From contig CAWECG010000004.1 of assembly GCA_963807605.1 (NCBI GenBank), positions 576,001 through 640,000 on the forward strand: DNA of 64,000 bases, given 5' to 3'. Origin of the DNA: Candidatus Bathyarchaeota archaeon. Its GTDB lineage: Archaea > Thermoproteota > Bathyarchaeia > 40CM-2-53-6 > RBG-13-38-9. Under the pieces are notes generated by a model. It was not told the origin of the DNA, did not search any database, and was given only the letters and a program-made list of their open reading frames with translations. The translations under genes and the position numbers were made by a program. Below are positions 7,644-60,441 of the stretch, one piece after another; the stretch's first letter is position 1, and the number at the start of each line of letters is the position of its first letter.

Positions 7644-9027
7644 TTGACACTCCCCTGCCTAAAGACAGGGGATTCTAGCTTCTATCATGTTCATCGGTTG
7701 ATGGGTCATAGCGTTGTTGCGCTCCCACCTCATTCCATCCCACTTTAGAAGGTTAGGGCGTGTCATCGCCCTGTTAATGACTCCCGCAGGGAGCTTAACC
7801 CCCTGAGTGAGTCCTATATTTACAACACCAATAGCATCCCTATTTGCTTCTAGTCCACAATTAAGGCATTTGAAGAGTCTGCCTTTCCTTTCAATGTTTT
7901 CTGACCCACATCTCACGCATTTGCTCGAAGTCTTGTATTCGCTGACTTCTTTGATCCGTATCCTATACTCTTGCGCTGTATGTTTCAGTCTTTGAATGAT
8001 GTAGTTGAAGCTCCAGAAGTTGTGGATTATGGCGTTGCTCTTCTTTCCTTTATCGTTGCCGTCTCTGATGCCTGTTAGGTCTCCTATCACAATCTTTGAA
8101 ACACCGAGATCATATAGATCTCTTACCATGTTTCTTATCATGGCATTGATGGCTTGCCTGAATCTCCGTTGTCTCATCCTATACAGTTTGCTGAGTCGCT
8201 TCGAACTTTTCTTGCCGTTGACTGCTTCAAGTCTGCTCTGACATTCCGCTATTCTAGTGACCCAGTACCACCAATCAGAGAGTAGATTTCTACCACTGTA
8301 TGCTACTGGTTGCCTCCATCCTTCAAGCCAGATGGTGAACAGGTTAATGATACCGATGTCGATGTAGCATGTCTTGGAGCCTTGCGGCTTAAACAATGGC
8401 TTTACCTTTACAGCCTGAAAGACACGCCACTTCCCATCAACCTCATCATAGATGACCTCGGCCTTTCCCTGCTTCCCACTCCATGTGGGTTTGCCTTGGA
8501 TGGGTATCTTCAACTTCTTTGGTAGCTTCATCGCTCCATCCTTCAGGCTGTAGATGTCGTTTCTCAGAACCATCATCAGCCTGTATTTTCCATCTCGCTT
8601 CCAGAAGCCAGGCGTACACACCTTCTCAATATTTAGTGGCAGTCTGCCTTCTCGCTCCAGCTGCTTTAATGCGAAGAAGCTCCTCCATGACTCGTTGCTC
8701 TTCCTGATGATCTGTTGAGATGTCGCCGAATCGATTAGTGGTGTATACTTTCGATAGAGGTCTTTGTACTCCCAATTTAGGGGTTGATAGTTCATGTATG
8801 CCTGTCTTTTGCGGTAGGTTGCCTCGTTCCAAAGTTTGGCACAGTTGGTAGCTTTATCCCTCAGTATCTTCTCTTGCTCCGCTGTTGGATCAAGGATGAA
8901 GGTGTTGGTTCTCTGCATGAAACTACCAGTATTATTATTGAAACACCAGACATTTAAGCCCCAAACGTCTCACTCTGGTCGCAATTCATCCCACCCCTGA
9001 AGGGGTGAGCTTTCTTGCTAGTTCAAT
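7644..9027 (-). mobile_element. IS200/IS605 tnpB-only element, F1 copy 2
   Basis: Same ends as copy 1; TTAC target at 9028-9031; inserted just upstream of the elp3 TATA-like box. Confidence 0.95.
7659..8918 (-). CDS. tnpB: TnpB (F1 copy 2, intact 419 aa)
   Basis: Closely similar to copy 1; IDIG, IVIGDL, EYKTS, NRD. Confidence 0.93.
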   Translation of the reverse strand: MQRTNTFILDPTAEQEKILRDKATNCAKLWNEATYRKRQAYMNYQPLNWEYKDLYRKYTPLIDSATSQQIIRKSNESWRSFFALKQLEREGRLPLNIEKVCTPGFWKRDGKYRLMMVLRNDIYSLKDGAMKLPKKLKIPIQGKPTWSGKQGKAEVIYDEVDGKWRVFQAVKVKPLFKPQGSKTCYIDIGIINLFTIWLEGWRQPVAYSGRNLLSDWWYWVTRIAECQSRLEAVNGKKSSKRLSKLYRMRQRRFRQAINAMIRNMVRDLYDLGVSKIVIGDLTGIRDGNDKGKKSNAIIHNFWSFNYIIQRLKHTAQEYRIRIKEVSEYKTSSKCVRCGSENIERKGRLFKCLNCGLEANRDAIGVVNIGLTQGVKLPAGVINRAMTRPNLLKWDGMRWERNNAMTHQPMNMIEARIPCL

Positions 9028-10419: not shown

Positions 10420-11743
<1,324 letters not shown>

Positions 11744-13910: not shown

Positions 13911-15350
13911 TCAGTCCTGGAAGAAGTGTCTGGTCTGGCCCATCGTCTGGACATCTAGAGGCTTGATATTAACAACGACAGGGAAGTCTCTGACTATATC
14001 GCCGACGATGAGGCAGTTGTGGGCGGGAAGATCTTTAACGATCGATTTTAGACTCTCAGCATCTATCTTCGCCACTTTTGAAACCGCATCCAAGTCATGT
14101 TCATTCGTGAAGTTGAACATGAAGATGTTGTCAGCCTGTCTGTAGACGCTCTCTTGGACAGTATCGGGCGAGTTGGTCACGAAGGTTGTGAATATGCCGA
14201 GATGTCTCATCCTTGTCACTATATCGTCCCAGTAGGTCTCTCGCAGGTAGAAGTGCGCCTCCTCTGCGAAGAGGAAGACTGCTTTCAACCTCATCTCTGA
14301 GAGTTCTTCCGTCACTTTGCTTATGAATAGTTCAACTATCAGTCTTCGGCTGATTGGATGTTCATCTTTCATGTTGATGACGTAGGCGTGGCCTTCATTC
14401 ATTTTCTTCTCAAAGGTGCTGAAGTCGAATGCTTGGGACTGATCGTTGGTGAAGAGTTCTAGATCCAGCAGGGTGTTGAATCTTGAGTAGATGGCTTCTC
14501 TGACGCTTTCGTGGCATGGGAATCTCCTGATGGAATCGTTGAGCGAATCGAGGTTTAGATTTCCATTTCTCTCAAGCTCATTCCACATTCTAGAGAAGAC
14601 CTTTGACGAGGTCCTGGGAAGGTCTAGGGCGTAGATCATGGTGTTAAGAAATGTCTTCAGACCAACCCCTGCTAAGCTGAACCTGAGGTTCTGGCCTGAT
14701 TTCAGAACGGAGATCTTATCTGCCACAGCATTAGGCTCGTCATTCTTTCCGCGGCCTATGTTTACATATTCACCGTTGATGTCGATTATCAGACATGGGG
14801 CTCCGTTCTGGACTAAACTTAATATGAGCAACTTAGAGAGATGTGACTTTCCTACTCCCTTCTTTCCGGTTATGATGTTCAGCCTCCCGTCGAGCATCTT
14901 CACATCTACTGTAAGGGAGTCTGACCTTGTTCTTCCAAGGGTGACGGGTCTTTTCCCATCCGTCGTCGAGGCCAACTTCTCGATCGGGTAAGGGACTATT
15001 CTCGAGGTTGTTCTTGATGGGAGCCATGATGCTTCTGTCTTGGCTTTTCCGCCTTCAATCGCGCCCCTGATCTTGCAAACGAGTAGTTTAGTGTCTTTCA
15101 AGACAGCGATCTGAGATGAGATGTTGAATGGATCATAATCACATCCTTGAACCGAATCCTCAGTCATAGCGTCCCTAAGTATATCTTCAAGGATGCCGGG
15201 CAGATTTGCGAATTGAATATCTATTACCTGGACCATGAGTCCCTTCTTCAGCTTCTTATCATCGATAAGCAGGTAGTCACCCTTCTCGATCATCTCTTCC
15301 GGTGAACATATGATCTGTACAGTATCGCCCTGTTTCTTGTAGATCTTCAG
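13911..15350 (-). CDS. HerA/FtsK-superfamily ATPase
   Basis: Walker A GKKGVGKS, IIDINGEY, Walker B FAEEAH; frame stays open to a CTG at 15350 immediately after the upstream gene's TGA. Confidence 0.85.
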   Translation of the reverse strand: MKIYKKQGDTVQIICSPEEMIEKGDYLLIDDKKLKKGLMVQVIDIQFANLPGILEDILRDAMTEDSVQGCDYDPFNISSQIAVLKDTKLLVCKIRGAIEGGKAKTEASWLPSRTTSRIVPYPIEKLASTTDGKRPVTLGRTRSDSLTVDVKMLDGRLNIITGKKGVGKSHLSKLLILSLVQNGAPCLIIDINGEYVNIGRGKNDEPNAVADKISVLKSGQNLRFSLAGVGLKTFLNTMIYALDLPRTSSKVFSRMWNELERNGNLNLDSLNDSIRRFPCHESVREAIYSRFNTLLDLELFTNDQSQAFDFSTFEKKMNEGHAYVINMKDEHPISRRLIVELFISKVTEELSEMRLKAVFLFAEEAHFYLRETYWDDIVTRMRHLGIFTTFVTNSPDTVQESVYRQADNIFMFNFTNEHDLDAVSKVAKIDAESLKSIVKDLPAHNCLIVGDIVRDFPVVVNIKPLDVQTMGQTRHFFQD

Positions 15351-16466
15351 TCAAGCCGCCTCCATCGATGTGCCGTAGGGACCGAAGAGGGATCTTCTGA
15401 GGCTAAACCTAGGCGCGAGTCGGAGCCCGTACTCTATCGACAGATGCCTCTGAATAGCCAAGATCTCATTCGCTGTGAAGGTTGAGAGAATATGTGCCAG
15501 CCTGAGTGTCTCCGGATAGCCTTGTTCGAGAACGTCTGTGTTAATCAGGCGCCCCATGGCTGTAAGCCCCAGTTCTTCAGGCACTTGGCGATCAATATCG
15601 ACTCTGAACGGAAGGCCCTGTGCGGCTAGTTTCGCTACGTAGACTCTTCCCATCAACCTGACAGGGGTCGAAGGAAATTGCGGAGCTATCAGTTTATCAA
15701 TATTCAATATGCACGGAGGTTTTGCCCTATCCAAGAGTCTAGTTATCCTCTTGCCGGAGAAGCAAAGTCTTGTCTCCTTTGAGAAGGCAACTGCCACGTT
15801 GCCATTCTCTCTTGAGCTGTTAAGAAGATCCTCGACACAAGCCGCTGGGTTGTCTGGCGTACCGGCGGTTAGAGAGCCATCCAAAAGGACTATTCCCTGT
15901 GAAAGGCTTGAGCAGGCGAATCTCTGCATCCATCTCTCCAGTGTATTTCTAAGCCTCGCGAGCAAGCGTTCAGTCACGGGCGACCATGCCGAGTATGAGA
16001 GACCTTGATGCGTGTGTGATCGCTTGTTGAGAAACCTAGCGATTGAGTCGTTGAGGTGGAAGGTGAGCGGTCCACATCTGGTAAAGTTGTAGCCTGATCC
16101 TTCCCTCCATACGAGAGCTCCTCTAATGGAATATATGAACCCCTCCTCAGATTCTCCAACCCTTACGCTTGAGACGTCGACTGCAGCAACAGGACAGCTC
16201 CCTTTGACGACTGGCAGCGGCCTTGGTTCATCGCTTATCGGCGTGTTTGTCAGGTCTACGTGAGGATCCTCCTCGACTTCCTCTTCTAAGCTAACCTCGA
16301 CTGTTGAGACTTCTCTAGGTTCAAAGAATCCGCCGTTGATCGTACGCATCGATTTGCTGCTCAGATCGAGGAGGAATTCTGGAAGCAGTGTCGTTTTTGA
16401 TTCTTCAAAGAGTAATCTACTTATCTTTGAATCTTCAAATTCTATGCCTTGGGTGCGGTGTGTCAG
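15351..16466 (-). CDS. NurA-like nuclease
   Basis: AAVDVSS, LLDGSL, FSKET, GYPETLRLAH motifs; frame open to CTG at 16466 after a G-rich RBS-like run. Confidence 0.8.
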   Translation of the reverse strand: MTHRTQGIEFEDSKISRLLFEESKTTLLPEFLLDLSSKSMRTINGGFFEPREVSTVEVSLEEEVEEDPHVDLTNTPISDEPRPLPVVKGSCPVAAVDVSSVRVGESEEGFIYSIRGALVWREGSGYNFTRCGPLTFHLNDSIARFLNKRSHTHQGLSYSAWSPVTERLLARLRNTLERWMQRFACSSLSQGIVLLDGSLTAGTPDNPAACVEDLLNSSRENGNVAVAFSKETRLCFSGKRITRLLDRAKPPCILNIDKLIAPQFPSTPVRLMGRVYVAKLAAQGLPFRVDIDRQVPEELGLTAMGRLINTDVLEQGYPETLRLAHILSTFTANEILAIQRHLSIEYGLRLAPRFSLRRSLFGPYGTSMEAA

Positions 16467-16536
16467 TTATTTCCCCCCTGTGGGAGTTTGCCCTCCAAAC
16501 TCCTGTGGCCGCCGCACCTACTCGCGCTCGTGGCAG

Positions 16537-17079
16537 TTAACTGCCAGGCTTGCGGCCTCCTTCGAGGTTTCTATCTCCGGCATCCCCCAGGGTCTTTAGA
16601 GTCTCTTGGACCTCTCTGGTTCCGGCTGCTGTGAGCCTGTAGCTGCCTTTTTCTACACGTTCTACTATCCCGGCTTTGCTCATCTCGGTCAGCGTATTCT
16701 GGATGGTTTTCTGAGCTTTCCCTATTGCCTTGGTTATCTCCTCCAACTGTACGTCATCTGATACCTTCTTTCCCAGTTTGAGGGCTACTTGGGCCGCAAG
16801 CAGGATCGTTGCTACAGCCTGGTCTGTGGAGAGGTCTGATCTCAACAGTATCGGCTGGCCGTCGCGTGTCAAGTTGACGAAAGCTGATATCTCCTCAAGG
16901 AGCGCGAGGTAGTCTGGACTGTAGATCAATTTTGAGGCAATGTCGTAGGCAGGATAGATCTCTGCTATGTATTGGCTTATTGCCCTGAGGACCTTTTCAG
17001 GTTCGCCTTCTATGGTATGTTTGAATCCTCCATGCTCTATTTGGACTTTCAATTTTGATTCTTGACTCATCTTTCTCAT
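16537..17079 (-). CDS. Winged-helix protein, paralog 4
   Basis: N-terminal KVQIEHGGFKHTIEGE, VNLTRDGQP, C-terminal EMSKAGIVERVEKGSYRLTAAG. Confidence 0.8.
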   Translation of the reverse strand: MRKMSQESKLKVQIEHGGFKHTIEGEPEKVLRAISQYIAEIYPAYDIASKLIYSPDYLALLEEISAFVNLTRDGQPILLRSDLSTDQAVATILLAAQVALKLGKKVSDDVQLEEITKAIGKAQKTIQNTLTEMSKAGIVERVEKGSYRLTAAGTREVQETLKTLGDAGDRNLEGGRKPGS

Positions 17080-17080
17080 C

Positions 17081-17578
17081 TCACGGAGTGAGTTTGGGTA
17101 GGATGTTTTGCATGAAGTTGTCAAGCCCATAGGTCGTTATCCGGTACTCGCCTTTGCCTATTCTCTCGACCAGTCCTTCTGTACACATCTCGCTTATTCT
17201 GCCGGCTACGGTTCCAGCTGTTTTCTTGGTGTAGGTTATCAGGTTACCAATCAGAGCCTTTTCGGAATCTAGATTCTTGGTGATGTAGCCGATGTGGACC
17301 TTGGCTAGGTGGAGGAGGATTAGTTCGCGGTCGGTTAGGTGTTCAGTTGGTACTATTACGACGACTCCTTCTGGTGTGAGTTTCATTATCTCGGAGCATG
17401 ATGAGAGGAGCTTCTCCTCATCCACTGTCAGCGTGAGTTTCGATATGAGCTCTAGTTTGGGAATGTTTTCTGACATGAAGCTGATCAATTCGCGGATCAC
17501 TTCGCTAGCGTCTCCTTTGATCTTCTTCTCTAGATTGTTGTATTTGATCCAGACCTCGACCGTTCTATCTTCGCTCAA
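17081..17578 (-). CDS. Winged-helix protein, paralog 3
   Basis: EVWIKYNNLEKKIKGD, MKLTPEGVV, RISEMCTEGLVERIGKGEYRITTYG. Confidence 0.8.
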   Translation of the reverse strand: MSEDRTVEVWIKYNNLEKKIKGDASEVIRELISFMSENIPKLELISKLTLTVDEEKLLSSCSEIMKLTPEGVVVIVPTEHLTDRELILLHLAKVHIGYITKNLDSEKALIGNLITYTKKTAGTVAGRISEMCTEGLVERIGKGEYRITTYGLDNFMQNILPKLTP

Positions 17579-18044
17579 CTGGGGTCCCTCCTGGCTTCAT
17601 CGACTTGACTGTGTTTTCTACCCACTGTTTTCCTGCGACTGTGAGTTTGTAGACGTCGCCTTCCCTGTAGGCTAGGCCTTCGCGTTTGAGTTCACTGAGT
17701 CTGCTTGCAAATCCGACTGAGAGGAATCCGCTGAGGCTCAGTAGGCGGCTGAGTTCTCTCGGTCTGACACCCTGTGGATCCATCGCGTATAGAAGAATGG
17801 CAACTGCCTCGCGGTCCGTCAGCTTTTCTCTTGTGACTGTCAGCACGGGTCCTTCAGTTGTCAGTTGGACTATCCTTGAGAGGATGTCTTTCTCACCTAC
17901 GGCTGTTGACTGGGTCGAGATCATGCTATCGATGACCTCGAGCCATTCGGGAAACTCTTTGATGCGGTCTATGATCTCGTCGAAGTTTTCTCCTTCGAGT
18001 TCTATGTTACCGTAGCTTCTGTGGAGTACGAGCTTGACCTTCAA
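17565..18044 (-). CDS. Winged-helix protein, paralog 2
   Basis: NIELEGE, VQLTTEGPV, RLSELKREGLAYREGDVYKLTVAG. Confidence 0.8.
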   Translation of the reverse strand: MKVKLVLHRSYGNIELEGENFDEIIDRIKEFPEWLEVIDSMISTQSTAVGEKDILSRIVQLTTEGPVLTVTREKLTDREAVAILLYAMDPQGVRPRELSRLLSLSGFLSVGFASRLSELKREGLAYREGDVYKLTVAGKQWVENTVKSMKPGGTPVERR

Positions 18045-18077
18045 AGCTTTTCTGAGACTGTTGTACTATGGAAAACG

Positions 18078-18127
18078 TATATAAGGTTTGCCGTAAAGTA
18101 TGAAGTATACGTAACGTTTACAGGCAA
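18078..18127 (-). promoter_or_regulatory. Internal BRE/TATA promoter with adjacent inverted repeat (candidate operator)
   Basis: Minus-strand CAAACCTTATATA ~35 nt before the paralog-2 start; imperfect IR TTGCCGTAAA (18088-18097) / TTTACAGGCAA (18117-18127). Confidence 0.5.
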
Positions 18128-18160
18128 CTCTGACATGGGGTTACATCCATTGTCCAAGAC

Positions 18161-18670
18161 TTATCGGAGCCTTCTCAGAACCTCATTCTCAACCCACTGC
18201 AACCCAGCGCCTGAGAGAGAATACTTACCGTTTTCAGCAACTAGCCGACCTTCCCTCCTAAGTTCACTCGCTCTGGCCCTCACTGCTTCAGGCTTCATCG
18301 TCTTCCAGCTTGAGCTGAGGATATTGCTCAGTTCATCACACTCAACGGCTGTTGGCTTAGCCGCATAGAGAATAAGTGCCAAGGCCTCCTTTGCCTTAAG
18401 AGAGTCCACTGGGATCGTCAGTCGGGGTCTGCCTTCCGGCGTGAGTTCAACAATACCTTCCAGAGAAGGCGTAACCGTGGTGCGGGTCGCCCCAAACTCG
18501 GAGAATGTCTTTTGAACAGGTTGTTGCTCAACACTTGTCTGGGGGAGGCTTTCCAGAAGCTTCTCGAAGTATTCTTTTACGTATGCAAAATCACCTTCGA
18601 GTTCAACTTCATAGTCCCCGCGTCTTATTCTGAATCTCAGGGTCTTTTCCTCGCTCAACCTTTCTCCCAT
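18161..18670 (-). CDS. Winged-helix protein, paralog 1
   Basis: RFRIRRGDYEVELEGD, VELTPEGRP, RASELRREGRLVAENGKYSLSGAG. Confidence 0.8.
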   Translation of the reverse strand: MGERLSEEKTLRFRIRRGDYEVELEGDFAYVKEYFEKLLESLPQTSVEQQPVQKTFSEFGATRTTVTPSLEGIVELTPEGRPRLTIPVDSLKAKEALALILYAAKPTAVECDELSNILSSSWKTMKPEAVRARASELRREGRLVAENGKYSLSGAGLQWVENEVLRRLR

Positions 18671-18703
18671 CCAATGTCGTCCTCAAGAGGCTGTCGGAAA
18701 ATT

Positions 18704-18870
18704 CTTCATATTGACATCTCCATATATGGGGATGGAGCGTTACCTCCGTGCGCTCTAGCCCGCCCATCATATCGGGTGGCTTCCACCCGCCAAGGCGTAT
18801 GCTTTACAGGCATAAGCCATGATAGCCGCTGCATTCTTTCCTTTGCGGCGTAGCGGGTGTGGGCTGTAAG
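18704..18870 (-). ncRNA. Putative omegaRNA-like scaffold overlapping the 3' end of the TnpB-like gene
   Basis: Clustered stems: CGGGTGG/CCACCCG (18773-18789), GGCGTATGC/GCATAAGCC, GCCGC/GCGGC, enclosing AGCCCGCCC (18757-65)/GGGTGTGGGCT (18855-65). Confidence 0.5.
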
Positions 18871-20271
18871 TCGCTCTATCAAAGGCTCCACATCTTTTGC
18901 ATCCTGCATATTCATCCTTCCATCGGTGGATATGCTAGGCTTCAGATATGGATGCCCGTGATCTTGAAGTAGAATTTTCTTAACCCAGGCTTGACGTTTA
19001 CGTATGCGTCCTGCAACTGTCTTCAGCTGGTCTGGGCTGAGATGTTCCTGTAGACCAAGTGCTCGTCTGCCAAGTATGAGTGCTGCAAGCTGATGTACAC
19101 TCATCCTTGGAAAGATTGGTTTGTATTTTGCTTCGGCGACTCGACTTGTATAGGCTGCTGGAATCCCTGCTAGGATCCACTCACGCCTCAGCGCTTTTGT
19201 GGCTGCAAGTGTGATAAGCTTCTTCCGCATGAAGTTGGCTATGAGTCTGTTCGCTCCGCCATGTTCAATACCTTTGAAATCGTTCAGGTCTTCAATGACC
19301 AGCACATTAACACCAAAGAAGCTTGCCCATTTGAGAGCCTTCTCTAGAAGGTTGCTTGCAAGCCACAGTCTCTTTTCCTTGCGGGCATAGATGAGTGCTG
19401 GTTCCTTGAAGGATTTGGCTGCAATGAGGTTTCCATCGCTGTTTACTATGACCAAGTCAATATGGGTAGGATTAACATCTATTGCAACCAATCTTGTCCC
19501 AGACCAAGGTTTGATCGGTTTGTCTGAGACCTCGAAGGATACGTAACAGTCATAATTTCCGTCAGGACGTTTCACCAGACGAATGGTGTATGGTCGAGTT
19601 GGATTCTTCGCCTTGACTGGGTGAACTGGTGGAAGGGTTTGGTCGGCGATGGCGTTGAAGATTCGCAGGTACGTTTCTGGCACGTGTAGTGGGACCATAA
19701 AGTTATCATGATTTGCTCCCCAACTTCGGATGTCAAGCATGAAGTCGCCATCAATTTTGCGGATGCGTGTGTGCAGGTTGCCCTTGTTCCATCCATCCCC
19801 AACGCTTACGAGTTGTCCTCGACGCTTCATGCGCCACCTCTCCGATCCTATGTGTTTTCGTCCGCCAAACACGACCTTCGGCAACGTACCATTCTTGAGA
19901 TGTGTTTGGATTGTGGCTTTTCGTTTCTCCAGCTTTGCGATCCGCATCTCATAGCCATGCTTCTTCAATGGGTTACAGGTTCGGTTCAGCTTCTTCTGGA
20001 CTTGGCCGATCTTCCAGTTTACTTCTTGAATGTGAAGGGCCAGCAGTTCTCGCTGACTCCCAATAATGGCTTTGGCTTGGAAGATGGCGTTATTCCGCCA
20101 GAGATAATTCTGAATACCGTAACGCTCCAAAAGGATGGGTGCGACTTCTGGCTGCTTGGTTCCAGGAATAAGTTGGTTGTAGGCTGAGCGGACCATACTC
20201 TGGAATATTCGACATGCATCGTCTAGGCTTAGATTCTGTTGTGCTTTGCAGTGAACTGTGTAGAATTGCAA
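18706..20271 (-). CDS. Divergent TnpB-related RuvC protein (no Zn finger, His at RuvC-III position)
   Basis: VVFGGRK, AIDVNP (RuvC-I), VIEDL (RuvC-II), AYTS..KY, SVHQLAALILGRR; GGTGA RBS before TTG. Confidence 0.8.
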   Translation of the reverse strand: MQFYTVHCKAQQNLSLDDACRIFQSMVRSAYNQLIPGTKQPEVAPILLERYGIQNYLWRNNAIFQAKAIIGSQRELLALHIQEVNWKIGQVQKKLNRTCNPLKKHGYEMRIAKLEKRKATIQTHLKNGTLPKVVFGGRKHIGSERWRMKRRGQLVSVGDGWNKGNLHTRIRKIDGDFMLDIRSWGANHDNFMVPLHVPETYLRIFNAIADQTLPPVHPVKAKNPTRPYTIRLVKRPDGNYDCYVSFEVSDKPIKPWSGTRLVAIDVNPTHIDLVIVNSDGNLIAAKSFKEPALIYARKEKRLWLASNLLEKALKWASFFGVNVLVIEDLNDFKGIEHGGANRLIANFMRKKLITLAATKALRREWILAGIPAAYTSRVAEAKYKPIFPRMSVHQLAALILGRRALGLQEHLSPDQLKTVAGRIRKRQAWVKKILLQDHGHPYLKPSISTDGRMNMQDAKDVEPLIERLTAHTRYAAKERMQRLSWLMPVKHTPWRVEATRYDGRARAHGGNAPSPYMEMSI

Positions 20272-20453
20272 ATCGCAGACTCACCCATAATTCTCCAGAT
20301 GGTGTTTTAAACAAATTTGTATCAATTTTCCGACAGCCTATTTAATCTTTAATGACCGATCAAACCTCGACAAGACCGGTTGATTCTGGCGCGCGAAATA
20401 TAGGCACGGTCAGTTAATGTTCTATCCGTTTTGAACCTTCACGTACTCTTTTT

Positions 20454-26226: not shown

Positions 26227-27569
26227 AAAAGGTGAGCGGGAAATCCCCCACCCTTTAGGGGTGGGATGAAAGCGAACTGGTATCAGCATTATAAGCGGAG
26301 TTTACAAAAAACTTAGTGAGTACAATGCAGTCTTCAGTACGCTATAGGCTTTACCCAACAAGGGAACAAGAGGAGGAGATGTCTGCAATCCTTGAGCTTT
26401 GCCGGTGGCTCTACAACTACTTCTTGGGAATAGTTAGGTACAGTGTAAAGGTGCCAAACAGGAAACTTCTACAAGAGATGATCCCTGCCCTATGCAGATA
26501 CAAGCCTGAGCTTGAGAAGCTACACTCAAAGACACGGCAATACGTCCTCTACCAACTGTACTCTAATCTCAGGGCACTCTCACAGATGAAGAAGAAAGGC
26601 AGGAAGGTTGGGAGGCTAAGATTCAAGGGACGTGGATGGTTCAAGGCCTTCATCTACAACCAATCTGGATTCTCAATCAAGCATGGTGCCAAGCAGATAC
26701 GACAGATGGGATTACTCCACCTCAGCAAGATAGGAGAAATTCCAGTCAGACTGCATAGAGAGATTGATGGTGAGATCAAACAGGTTATCATCAAACATTC
26801 TGCAAACAACAATTGGTATGCAATAACCTCCATTGAATATGACCATCCGATAAATACTGAGCCAGCGGACAGAAGCAAAACTGTTGGGGTAGATGTTGGC
26901 ATAGTAAACTATGCCTACGATTCTAATGGAAGAGTGACCCCTCATCCGCATAACATCGACAAAAAACTGAAGAGACTCCAAAGAGAGCAAAGGCAGCTAT
27001 CAAGAAAGAAGGGATCAAGAAACAGGATGAAGCAGAAGGTCAAGGTTGCATCAATCCATGAGGACATAACAAACTGCAGGAATGACTTCCTGCACAAACT
27101 CTCAAGGTACTACGTTGACAAACACGATGTAATCTGCATGGAAGATCTGAATATTCAGGATTTGATGCAGGGGATCCCTAATGCCAAGAATATGGCTGAT
27201 GCTTCATGGGGAAGATTTGGAATGATGGTGGGGTACAAGGCTGAAACCGCCTGTAAACATCGAATACAAGTACCGCCCCAGAACACCAGCCAGGATTGCA
27301 GTGGATGTGGCGCTAAGGTTCCTAAGACTCTTGCAGTGAGGATACACAAGTGTCCCCATTGTAGGCTAAAGATTGATAGGGACTTCAATGCATCACTCAA
27401 TATAAGGCGTTTAGGACTGGAAAGAATAGGGTGGGAACCATCCGAATACACGCCTGTGGAGATGAAGCCTCTACCAACCATTATTCGTGGGCATGCTTCG
27501 TCGCTGAAGCAGGAACTTCTCCATCCGCAAGGGGAGAAGCCCACACCCTTCAGGGGTGGGTAAGTTCAC
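26227..27569 (+). mobile_element. IS200/IS605 tnpB-only element, family F3
   Basis: Left end AAAAGGTGAGCGGGAAAT-CCCCCACCCTTTAGGGGTGGG; right end GAAG-CCCACACCCTTCAGGGGTGGG-TAAGTTCAC; left boundary +/-1. Confidence 0.88.
26316..27563 (+). CDS. tnpB: TnpB (F3, canonical D-E-D)
   Basis: RYRLYP, GVDVG, CMEDL, CSGC..CPHC, DRDFNAS. Confidence 0.93.
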   Translation: MSTMQSSVRYRLYPTREQEEEMSAILELCRWLYNYFLGIVRYSVKVPNRKLLQEMIPALCRYKPELEKLHSKTRQYVLYQLYSNLRALSQMKKKGRKVGRLRFKGRGWFKAFIYNQSGFSIKHGAKQIRQMGLLHLSKIGEIPVRLHREIDGEIKQVIIKHSANNNWYAITSIEYDHPINTEPADRSKTVGVDVGIVNYAYDSNGRVTPHPHNIDKKLKRLQREQRQLSRKKGSRNRMKQKVKVASIHEDITNCRNDFLHKLSRYYVDKHDVICMEDLNIQDLMQGIPNAKNMADASWGRFGMMVGYKAETACKHRIQVPPQNTSQDCSGCGAKVPKTLAVRIHKCPHCRLKIDRDFNASLNIRRLGLERIGWEPSEYTPVEMKPLPTIIRGHASSLKQELLHPQGEKPTPFRGG

Positions 27570-40787: not shown

Positions 40788-42050
40788 CTAAAAATGTGTA
40801 TTTTTATGCACGACATTTTTATTCGGAGCGTTGGATGGCTCTGTCCCACCTGCTCCTCGGTCCTTGGCCGGGGTGTACAGGTATTCATTCTTCTTCGCCA
40901 TCCAAGAGGCGTCCGCACTCACGGCAAACGGTTGGCCGCATAGGCGTAGTCCACGTTGAACTATCTCCAGTGAGGAGAGCTTGTTTCGTGCGTAGTCCAC
41001 GCCGCAGGTGTCACACTTTGATATCTCCCAGGCTGGGTGCTTTAGTTTGTCACTGCAGACGGGACACTCTGAGGAGGTCCCTCTTGGGTTCACGTACAAG
41101 GTGCGATTAGGAGATTTGTACTCGACCATAGACTGGTAGAGGCGGTAGGGCCATCGGTTCAGGTGCATCCTGAACCTCTTTCCTTTGTTCTTTCCGCCTT
41201 TTCTAATGCCTTTGAGATTCTCGAAGATATGTGAGGTGCCCGGGTTTGCTTTCACGGTCTCTGTGCTGAGTTTGTGGAGGGTGTCGTTTATGCGGTTTTT
41301 TTGTCTGCCCCGTGTCTCTCTCAGTTTCCTTTCACGTTTCTGCGGGTTCTTGACGTGCAGTTGGATTTGTCGTCGTCTTCTTGAGAAATCGTTTTGGATT
41401 CTGGTTATTTGTGTGATTGGGGTAGTTTTCACGTCTTCGAGGCTTGGTGTGCTGTTGGCAATCACGGTGGTGGAGTCGATGGTGCTAAAGTTCAGGTCGC
41501 TGCCAACAAATCTGCCGCCTATGGGTTTATTGTCGTCTGTGATGGTGAATGTGAGGCAGATCTTTCTGTCGGTTATCAGCAGCTCGGATGGTCTGCCTCT
41601 GTTGTATTCTTGGTAGTGTTTGTTGGCGGTGTTGAGTGGTAACCATACGTACTGGTTTGGTTGTAGCGTTACCCTGATCTTGTCGTCCATGATTCTGAAC
41701 AGTTCTGTGTCGATGCGCATCGCCAGCCTTTGGACGTCTGGGATTCGTAGTTCACCGTGATGATTCTTCCTGTACGAGCGAATTATTCCTGTCGCCGCTC
41801 TGCACACGGGGTTGATGTGGTGTCTTGCATAGTCGTATCTGGAGTTGAACCAGTCTCTTGTTTCTCTTCTCAGTATTATTGGGGAAGGTATTCTGCGCTC
41901 CTTGTCTCTCACGATTATTCTGTAGGCGAGTTGGAGCGAGTAATTGATGGCATCTCGCATGTCCTGAAGGTACTTCACTGTTGCCTCCGACGGTTCGTAG
42001 CCCCAAGCAATCGTCCTCTTCCCTCCCTTCGACCTCCACGGATGATTCAA
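40788..42050 (-). CDS. tnpB: IS607-associated TnpB (RuvC-III Asp apparently Asn)
   Basis: GSDLN, IFENL, GTSSECPVC..CDTC, DYARN. Confidence 0.85.
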   Translation of the reverse strand: MNHPWRSKGGKRTIAWGYEPSEATVKYLQDMRDAINYSLQLAYRIIVRDKERRIPSPIILRRETRDWFNSRYDYARHHINPVCRAATGIIRSYRKNHHGELRIPDVQRLAMRIDTELFRIMDDKIRVTLQPNQYVWLPLNTANKHYQEYNRGRPSELLITDRKICLTFTITDDNKPIGGRFVGSDLNFSTIDSTTVIANSTPSLEDVKTTPITQITRIQNDFSRRRRQIQLHVKNPQKRERKLRETRGRQKNRINDTLHKLSTETVKANPGTSHIFENLKGIRKGGKNKGKRFRMHLNRWPYRLYQSMVEYKSPNRTLYVNPRGTSSECPVCSDKLKHPAWEISKCDTCGVDYARNKLSSLEIVQRGLRLCGQPFAVSADASWMAKKNEYLYTPAKDRGAGGTEPSNAPNKNVVHKNTHF

Positions 42051-45032: not shown

Positions 45033-46399
45033 ATTGAACTAGCAAGAAAGCCCACTCCTTCAGGGGTGGGATGAATTGCGACCAGAGTGAGACGTTTGGG
45101 GCTTAAATGTCTGGTGTTTCAATGATAATGCTGGTAGTTTCATGCGGAGAACTAACACCTTCATCCTTGCCCCAACAATGGAGCAAGAAAGAACACAGGG
45201 ATAGAGCTACCAACTGTGCTAAACTTTGGAACGAGGCAACCTACCGTAGAAGACAGGCATACATGAACTATCAACCGATAGATTGGGAGTGCAAAGACCT
45301 CTATGAAAAGTATACACCGCTAATCGATTCAGCGACATCTCAACAGATCATCAGAAAGAGCAACGAATCATGGAGGAGCTTCTTTGCCCTAAAGAAGATG
45401 GAGCGAGAAGGCAGACTGCCACTAAATATTGAGAAAGTATGTACGCCAGGGTTCTGGAAAAAAGATGGAAAATACAGGCTGATGATGGTTCTGAGAAACG
45501 ACATCTACAGCCTGAAGAATGGAACGATGAAGATATCCATCCGAGGCAAACCCAGATGGGGTGGCAAGCAGGGAAAAGCCGAGGTCATCTATGATGAGGC
45601 TGATGGGAAGTGGCGTGTCTTTCAGGCAGTAAAGGTAAAGCCATTGTTTAAGCCGAAAGGCTCCAAGACATGCTACATCGACCCCGGCGTAATCAACCTG
45701 TTCACCATCTGGCTTGAAGGATGGAGGCAACCAATAGCATGCAATGGAAGAAATCTACTCTCTGATTGGCGGTACTGGAATGAAAGAATAGCAAGTTGCC
45801 AGAGCACTCTTGAAACAATCAATGGTAAGAAAAACTCAAAGCAGCTAAGCAGATTCTACAGGATGAGACAACGGAGATTCCGACAGGCCATCAACACTAT
45901 GATAAGAAGCGTGGCCAGAGACCTCTATGATCTCGGTGTTTCAAAGATTATGATAGGAGATCTAACGGGCATAAGAGAGAACAATGGAGAGAATAGTCAC
46001 AAGGTCAACTCAATGATTCATAACTTTTGGAGCTTCAACTACATTATTCAAAGACTAAAGTGTACAGCGCAGGAATATGGCATAAGAGTGAAAGAAGTCA
46101 GCGAATACAAAACTTCAAGCAGATGCATAAGATGCAGCTCAGAAAACATTGAGAGAAAAGGCAGACTCTTCAAGTGTCTAGAATGTGGATTGGAGGCTCA
46201 TAGGGATGCTATTGGTGTTGTAAATATAGGACTCACTCAGGGGGTTAAGCTCCCTGCGGGAGTGATTAACAGGGCGATGACACGCCCTAACCTTCTAAAG
46301 TGGGATGGAATGAGGTGGGAGCGCAACAACGCTATGACCCATCAACCGATGAACATGATAGAAGCTAGAATCCCCTGTCTTTAGGCAGGGGAGTGTCAA
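45033..46399 (+). mobile_element. IS200/IS605 tnpB-only element, F1 copy 4
   Basis: TTAC (45029-32)|ATTGAAC left end; right end ...GAGTGTCAA. Confidence 0.93.
45142..46384 (+). pseudogene. tnpB: tnpB F1 copy 4, N-terminal frameshift
   Basis: Homologous start ATG 45142 (MRRTNTF) hits a stop after a 2-nt deletion near 45196; also lacks five residues (LPKKx). Confidence 0.8.
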
Positions 46400-59116: not shown

Positions 59117-60441
59117 GTGACATCCTCCCATGGCTAAAGCCGTGGGCTTCCCGCTTCAACATCTTTGCTTACCATTCCTCTTAGGGATGGCAGAGGCTCA
59201 GACTCTGCGGGCGTATTCACCCACCGTCCGTGGGCATAGTCGGGTTTGAAGCCTGACAGACCAATCTTCTTGATTAGTTTAGCCGAGTTCTCGTCTCTTG
59301 GAATCGACTCACCGCAATTCAGGCATATATGATCTCTCTCGCTCAGGTCTTTCGGCACCCATGATAGGCAGTCGTGGCAGAATTGTGTGGTACCCCATGG
59401 GTCGACCGGCATGAACCATTTGCCGAGCAGGTTGGCTTTGAATTGTGCCTTACGGAAGAACCTTCCGGGCGAAGCGTCTTGGAGGCTCTTGGCTAGGCAG
59501 TGATTCTTCACCATGTTAGCTACAGCTAGTCTTTCCAAGAATAGGATATCAGTGGTCTTGTACAGTGTTGCCAGTGTCTTGTTTTGGTAGTCGTCTCTCT
59601 GACAGGCTACATGAAGGTGTTGCCTTGCCACTCTCAAAGCCAGCTTTCTCCTATTTCTTGAGCCCTTCTTTGCTCTTGATATTACTCGCTGCAGTCTCCT
59701 GATCTTCTCCTCAGACTTTCTCAGAAACTTCGGTGGCTCCATCGTGGTTGCATCTGAAAGCGTTAGGAACTTAATCAGCCCTATGTCTCCCCCTTTGATC
59801 CGCTCATCTGGAATCTGCGCGATGGGGGTCTTCTCCTGATTTGGAATCTTGCAGGCGAATACCACATACCACTGTCCAGCATTGTATTTTACAGTCAAAG
59901 TTTTGACTTGACCTTCCACCGGTCTATGCATGAAGATTCGGACATTCCCTATCCCCGAGAGGTACAGCTTACTGTTGCATAGTTTGAAGCCTGATTGTGG
60001 GTAGGTGAAGGAGAGATACTTCCTCGGATGTTTCTGCTTGGGAAATCTTGCTCTACCCTCAAAGTAGTTCTTGAACGATCCGGCAAGCCTTGTGGCAACA
60101 CTCTGGACAACCTGACTATGTATTCCCTGAAGATTCTCGTCTTCTCGTCTAAACTCTAGCGCCTTCAGCCTCAAGTCGGTTCTGCTCAGACTGATGTGCT
60201 CCTGTTTCCAAGTACCGATCTTCAGGTCCCTAAGTGTGTTGTATAGCTCACACAATGTGGACAGGTGGCTTTTCATCAGCCTTCCCTGCCCCACTTTAGG
60301 GTATATACGGTACTTGTAGGCTAGAAGCATTCTTAACCATCAATAAATACATGTTTTGAACAAAATTTAAACATCTGGCATCTCACTCTGGAACGCAATT
60401 CATCCCACGGCTAAAGCCGTAGGTTTTCTCGCGCACTTTCT
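59117..60441 (-). mobile_element. IS200/IS605 tnpB-only element, F2 copy B
   Basis: Same ends as 10420-11743; TTAT target at 60442-60445. Confidence 0.93.
59134..60330 (-). CDS. tnpB: TnpB (F2 copy B, intact)
   Basis: Closely similar to 10437-11633. Confidence 0.93.
   Translation of the reverse strand: MLLAYKYRIYPKVGQGRLMKSHLSTLCELYNTLRDLKIGTWKQEHISLSRTDLRLKALEFRREDENLQGIHSQVVQSVATRLAGSFKNYFEGRARFPKQKHPRKYLSFTYPQSGFKLCNSKLYLSGIGNVRIFMHRPVEGQVKTLTVKYNAGQWYVVFACKIPNQEKTPIAQIPDERIKGGDIGLIKFLTLSDATTMEPPKFLRKSEEKIRRLQRVISRAKKGSRNRRKLALRVARQHLHVACQRDDYQNKTLATLYKTTDILFLERLAVANMVKNHCLAKSLQDASPGRFFRKAQFKANLLGKWFMPVDPWGTTQFCHDCLSWVPKDLSERDHICLNCGESIPRDENSAKLIKKIGLSGFKPDYAHGRWVNTPAESEPLPSLRGMVSKDVEAGSPRL

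Follow-up and report, generated by a model that had tools for sequence, protein, structure and literature searches.

The window analyzed here, a 64-kb stretch of a Bathyarchaeia genome, contains a compact mobile element in which a tnpB gene lies between two terminal inverted repeats (TIRs). The initial annotation had read this locus as an RNA-guided nuclease captured by a cut-and-paste transposon and mobilized in trans. The features of the element and its immediate flanks, listed in the direction in which tnpB is read, are as follows:

20341..20344, minus strand: candidate TAM, TAAA (YAAR), abutting the left end; the same motif is found in 6 of 7 homologous copies
18687..20340, minus strand: whole non-autonomous element, 1654 bp, with boundaries taken from the junctions of nine two-ended copies
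20324..20340, minus strand: left (upstream) TIR, 17 bp, of which the first base varies (T in the window copy)
20305..20311, minus strand: TATA-like sequence upstream of the start codon, a putative archaeal promoter read from the sequence
18706..20271, minus strand: tnpB, 521 aa, TTG start
19477-19479, 19291-19293 and 19093-19095: codons of the RuvC residues D265, E327 and H393
18687..18872, minus strand: predicted omegaRNA scaffold of seven helices and a terminal pseudoknot, mostly inside the ORF, with conservation continuing to about 18924
18742..18746, minus strand: loop motif GAGGU, the predicted 5′ strand of the pseudoknot, in hairpin 18735-18755
18687..18703, plus strand: right TIR, 17 bp; conservation ceases right after ...CCTC
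18687-18691: last five bases of the right end, the predicted 3′ strand of the RNA pseudoknot
18667..18686, minus strand: predicted guide, in the host flank beyond the right end and running into the start of the next gene, placed by the conservation boundary and known TnpB architecture

The element sits between a TATA-like sequence (20341-20352) and the start of a 169-aa gene (18670-18686), and this gene may therefore now rely on read-through from the element. A sigma-70 promoter scan was uninformative, the host being an archaeon. Elsewhere in the window there are six tnpB genes of the ordinary IS605 type (7659-8918, 10437-11633, 26316-27563, 40788-42050, 45107-46384 and 59134-60330), and four short paralogous ORFs (13911-18670), at least two of which remain adjacent in relatives, lie beside NurA-like and HerA-like genes.

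The catalytic residues proposed from the sequence, comprising the RuvC Asp and Glu together with a His at the RuvC-III position, are invariant in 25 close homologues, and the suggested loss of the zinc finger also holds, as the protein has neither a C4 arrangement nor CxxC pairs between E327 and H393. Conservation extends to 109 distant homologues, which retain D265 in 108 cases, E327 in 106 and H393 in 102 (Asp occupies the RuvC-III position in 5); in a deeper hhalign alignment, H393 is aligned to the DRD motif region of ordinary TnpBs. Confidence in the structure model is high up to about residue 420, beyond which the model is disordered, and the last ~85 residues, predicted to be disordered, are encoded by a stretch that overlaps the predicted RNA. 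The top Foldseek matches of the model are Cas12k and Cas12f (E 1e-7), and its RuvC fold is matched with Z 14.4 and an rmsd of 2.6 over 136 aligned residues; as modeled, the protein has a TnpB/Cas12f-related architecture of WED/REC and RuvC domains. A Pfam search with the window protein alone returned no match. Its homologues match PF27229, TIGR01765 and NF040570, all below cut-off (for NF040570, E 6e-7 to 2e-12, under the curated cut-off); 30 were found in the first search, most of them annotated PF27229, and 2220 in the profile search. Codon comparison shows purifying selection on tnpB, with dN/dS of 0.09-0.19 over codons 2-430. Among the homologues, a 1208-aa protein (P0033) has a C-terminal half that matches the family of the window TnpB and may be a fusion, and one locus (L318:401-4533) carries a run of three tnpB genes, in which a back-to-back pair of PF27229 genes is followed by one of IS605 type.

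The perfect 16-bp inverted repeat reported at 18688-18703 and 20324-20339 is present, separated on one side by 2 nt from the stop codon and on the other by 52 nt from the TTG start of the 521-aa ORF. The repeats were thus placed correctly, but the element extent derived from them (18688-20339) is one base short on each side; comparison of junctions gives ends of 17 bp with a variable first base, and an element of 18687-20340. The inverted ends are not a chance arrangement, because the same pair bounds eight further homologues in unrelated flanks. Homologues of 50-90% identity keep the same ends in unrelated surroundings, where loss of the TIRs would have spoken against the initial annotation, and the nine two-ended copies in all provide the additional insertions that it had called for. 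Target duplications flank seven of the nine, with lengths of 5, 6, 6, 7, 8, 8 (with one mismatch) and 11 bp. The earlier statement that there is no clear target-site duplication therefore applies to the window copy, and also to the copy L314, but not to the family. In two other genomes (G001:C85 and G008:C28), the flanking host genes are adjacent without the element; the empty site in relatives has diverged too far to show whether a duplication was lost. A left end identical at 95 of 96 positions lies at a different site in the same-genus genome G001, which argues for recent movement. The host genome (2.65 Mb, 94% complete) holds one copy of the gene. Searches of collections of genome contigs and of viral contigs confirmed no relative, and an exact 16-mer scan of the genome contigs returned mostly chance matches, with one in Bathyarchaeota (L095 in G233, the same place as L233).

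The 16 inner bases of the left end are identical to the left end of an autonomous IS1182-like element, and the same ends bound this complete 16.4-kb transposon in another Bathyarchaeia genome from the host's taxonomic order (L249:260-16709, G233:C1). It is sited just after the 3′ end of a tRNA with an 8-bp duplication; besides a DDE transposase of 353 aa and a partner ORF that overlaps it, it encodes cargo that includes a methylase, an MvaI/BcnI endonuclease and HerA-NurA. In four further metagenomic loci (L287, L290, L292 and L294) the end lies 550-590 nt upstream of the transposase, and G323 is similar. A DDE transposase bounded by the same ends, as the initial annotation had anticipated, thus exists, in other genomes only. 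These transposases are about 350 aa long and comprise DUF772 and DDE_Tnp_1 with conserved acidic residues; we call them IS1182-like because IS1182 is their best NCBIfam family, with scores of 116 and 132.6 bits that do not reach the model cut-off of 270. Of 61 related genomes, 11 contain the end motif, and a reversed control gave no match. No cognate transposase was found in the host assembly, where the best matches have 26-28% identity and ends that are related but different, nor in any of the tnpB loci retrieved; it was never seen in one element with a window-type tnpB. As the transposase was not found in the assembly, we infer that the element moves in trans. The carrier family has nevertheless been active in this lineage, since the host genome contains a cargo-only element of 3.5 kb and some ten additional ends.

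This cargo-only element (G000:C1:562702-566180) has the same ends and a 7-bp duplication without a transposase, carries ABC-transporter and PadR-like genes, and lies beside a tRNA-like 3′ end. Two convergent ends 88 kb apart (G000:C3:347089-435490), with a 6-bp near-duplication containing one mismatch, possibly delimit a single cargo element of very large size, but equally good matches arise by chance in two other end pairs. More broadly, large cargo transposons with defence-type genes, headed by an IS1182-like transposase and an overlapping ORF of ~157 aa, are seen at L249, L287, L290, L292, L294, L231 and L229, with cargo comprising methylases, restriction endonucleases, HerA-NurA, ParB and HEPN genes. 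TnpB-free ends follow a tRNA 3′ end in 13 of 37 cases, 12 of these within 9-14 nt, and a degenerate end of the same family that starts inside the right-hand duplication of L249 (L249:16708-16732) suggests repeated insertion at one tRNA site. No description of tRNA-adjacent IS1182-like cargo transposons was found in the literature searched. Two other IS1182-like elements, whose ends share the register of the window element, are present in the host in 14 copies on contigs C1, C3, C4 and C5 of G000 (L058-L065); almost every copy has GCGCGC, part of a TAGCGCGCTA-like palindrome, as its insertion site. These abundant elements (transposases of 342 and 360 aa) are unlikely partners of the window element, as their ends differ at ~5 of 16 positions and they occupy GCGCGC sites. 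Two other candidates were set aside: casposons, for which there are Cas1 matches in the genome but ends tied to the IS1182-like gene, and Aloposons, whose gene content is different.

The closest relatives of the window TnpB that lack inverted ends (40-46% identity) are of the IS607 type. One (L026) is preceded by a remnant of an IS607 tnpA with HTH and resolvase matches, another (L024) by a similar C-terminal tnpA piece without a Pfam match of its own, and a third (L023) was put among the IS607-type rows by its end sequence only. In the tree, the TIR-bounded clade is monophyletic (100/99) and nested inside an IS607-type grade, with monophyly of the three IS607-type rows rejected (p-AU 0.026). 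The IS607 ancestry of tnpB is shown by these sequence relationships, and that its nearest non-TIR relatives are IS607-type fits a capture. Together with the DDE transposase between the same ends, these relatives uphold the proposed capture by a cut-and-paste transposon.

The same ends have also enclosed another tnpB. In the host genome, a broken second tnpB (G000:C4:719934-721306; L057) lies between them with a 6-bp duplication, and its frame is open in another genome (L325:797-2220; G309), where the interior of the left end resembles that of L005. This protein has a zinc finger and an NAD motif and is unrelated to the window TnpB; its relatives are of the IS605 type, with hairpin ends and, at L320, a Y1 tnpA. 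Two tnpBs of separate origin between the same ends show that the same shell has carried two unrelated TnpBs.

The nested hairpins described at the 3′ end of the gene find support in covariation, but not in the folding of the single sequence (z=-1.17, not significant). Of 40 pairs proposed for the final 190 nt, 21 have changes in both partners, compared with 0 of 500 shuffles and 4-8 in slid controls, in a shuffle test that is inflated by related sequences and for a structure itself drawn from the same sequences. Across codons 445-521, synonymous divergence drops to roughly half while dN/dS rises. An Rfam search returned nothing meaningful. Pairing is possible between the loop GAGGU and the five terminal bases, RCCUC; the corresponding strands in the IS607-type relatives are GAGUU and RACUC. 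This helix 7 is 99% paired, with a change from G-C to U-A in three IS607-type rows. In the window TnpB family, every right end (17 of 17) terminates in C; at 37 TnpB-free ends, the other strand has T in 35 and another base in 2, and the G required for a terminal C in none. This pattern is suggestive of a switch in which the 3′ strand of the pseudoknot came to be supplied by the inverted end in place of the IS607 end, support that is not statistical because the three related rows represent one evolutionary event. By computation, the structured conserved RNA region stops at the right end and is followed by variable flank. The guide is accordingly predicted in the 3′ flank, as first noted; since both ends extend one base further, it would start one base later than proposed, from 18686 downward (TTGAGG...).

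The four bases 5′ of the duplication in the seven duplicated copies are CAAG, TAAG, TAAA, CAAG, TGAC, TAAA and TAAG, six of which conform to YAAR (5.17 bits; 0 of 200000 random draws from the same flanks). The other side of the duplication shows no motif in these seven copies, and L314, which has no duplication, carries TAAA 6 nt from its end. If the guide begins with the duplicated bases, YAAR lies where a TAM must be, and it is probably the TAM of this family. Four TnpB-free elements, imperfect controls since three of them are tRNA-adjacent, have YAAR on 0 of 8 duplication-defined sides, and CA on one side in three of the four. In the IS607-type relatives, the left-junction motif, read by eye, seems to be RGTCT, and the unrelated second tnpB in the same ends has AAAG or ATAG 5′ of its duplication. 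YAAR may therefore partly be a preference of the transposase; sequence comparison cannot separate a TAM, a transposase preference and their co-evolution.

We consider it likely that the ends of a Bathyarchaeia IS1182-like DDE transposon family captured an IS607-derived tnpB along with the scaffold of its guide RNA. The transposase of the carrier family would move the element in trans, leaving duplications that differ in length. A single transcript started at the internal promoter would yield the protein and, from its 3′ part, the omegaRNA, with the right inverted end closing the RNA pseudoknot. The guide would then consist of the duplicated target and the downstream host DNA, and the TAM, probably YAAR, would lie just 5′ of the duplication. 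An empty allele would thus present a TAM with a full match and be cut; at a filled junction, either the TAM would be present next to a match that is short, or the match would be full and the TAM missing. Repair from the filled chromosome copy would restore or spread the element.

The capture and trans movement could also have occurred as proposed with YAAR being a one-sided preference of the transposase, and TnpB having another TAM or being only partly adapted. This is unlikely on balance: the two unrelated TnpBs in the same ends do share an AAG/TAG-like motif 5′ of the duplication, where their presumed ancestral motifs differ (RGTCT for the IS607 type and TTGAG/TCGAG for the IS605 type), and YAAR occurs 0-11 nt outside 12 of 37 TnpB-free ends (9 at 5-8 nt; about half made by the tRNA CCA end), but the duplication-defined sides of the TnpB-free elements lack it and the motif is polar with respect to tnpB. 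Preference and TAM are, moreover, not mutually exclusive; in IS605 and IS607 elements, target preference and TAM coincide. A protein that binds guide-matched DNA without cutting, as a repressor or a passive passenger, would account for the replacement of the third catalytic Asp by His and for an insertion that separates a TATA-like sequence from the start of a host gene, with a guide that matches the promoter region. We regard this as quite unlikely, given the retention of all three residues in nearly all distant homologues and guides that differ at every insertion, unlike a fixed regulatory target; conserved rearrangements of this kind have been argued to stay active (Altae-Tran et al. 2023, PNAS, PMC10691335). 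The literature searched yielded no activity report for a D-E-H TnpB specifically.

TnpB could alternatively help to choose the site, if its reading of the TAM positioned the transposase such that the right end joins next to YAAR and the other cut floats. The fixed boundary on the YAAR side, a duplication length of 0 to 11 bp and TnpB-free elements without the motif all agree with this, but post-insertion selection, with homing of roughly 1/60 insertions with a TAM, predicts the same snapshot, and variable duplications (6-8 bp) are found in TnpB-free elements too; we hold it to be the least probable of these readings. Its extension, in which the ends form a reusable shell for IS607 and IS605 TnpBs and TnpB, beyond acting as a guard, steers a separately encoded transposase, the right-end joint being fixed beside its TAM and the duplication length floating, is very unlikely; if true, it would amount to a simple precursor of targeting in which RNA and protein assist a single-subunit DDE transposase.

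A tnpB between DDE-type ends, solo copies included, is already published. Altae-Tran et al. described inverted repeats in six DDE-associated TnpB branches (DDE-1 to DDE-6), as well as solo TnpBs whose ends match and which were presumed to be mobilized in trans (PMC10691335). The window element resembles these in having tnpB between TIRs, the 3′ end of the gene near the transposon end and solo copies. By the main-text description it is set apart by duplications that vary in length and sequence and by a TAM candidate outside the duplication; IS607 ancestry and the use of an end in the pseudoknot are traced here for the window element. Its carrier scores best as IS1182-like, unlike the carrier families named in a 2026 review (ISL2, IS630 and IS1031; PMC13565253), and no description of an IS1182-like carrier of tnpB was found in the literature searched, the coverage of which was incomplete. 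New here are the IS1182-like carrier, duplications that vary in length, an IS607 origin that can be traced and the capture of tnpB on two occasions. With a His at RuvC-III and no C4 zinc finger, the window TnpB matches the description of the RIIIr-4 clade, in which the RuvC-III Asp is replaced by His and the C4 zinc finger is absent, and it would thereby belong to this clade; the main text of PMC10691335 links no DDE carrier to it. A guide boundary and a candidate TAM can now be named for a D-E-H TnpB without a zinc finger.

The element combines traits of several systems. It shares an RNA scaffold and pseudoknot with its closest non-TIR, IS607-type relatives, but unlike IS607 elements, which have neither TIRs nor duplications, it has inverted ends, duplications within the family and no serine recombinase. 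The TIRs and duplications of the family likewise distinguish it from IS200/IS605 elements, which have a Y1 tnpA or subterminal hairpin ends and neither feature. The partner transposase is like those of IS1182 in combining DUF772 with DDE_Tnp_1, and the other IS1182-like ends of the host are in the same register; unlike IS1182, it falls below the family cut-off at about 350 aa, is followed by the ~157-aa partner ORF and kilobases of cargo, and often lies just past a tRNA 3′ end. This tRNA-adjacent cargo transposon with defence genes may merit separate study. For TnpB itself, the locus offers a traceable change of carrier in which the donor family, the acceptor family and the RNA base pair that changed are all identifiable. 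Prokaryotic DDE-TnpB pairs have been described as rare, and as puzzling because duplications complicate target recognition (PMC13565253). The window TnpB family provides a testable answer to this puzzle, with the TAM outside the duplication and the duplication inside the guide. Fanzors in eukaryotic DDE transposons are similarly RNA-guided TnpB homologues inside an element with TIRs and target-site duplications; there the TAM includes the 5′ duplication and the scaffold includes the 3′ one, whereas in the window family the duplication is variable and would form the first bases of the guide.
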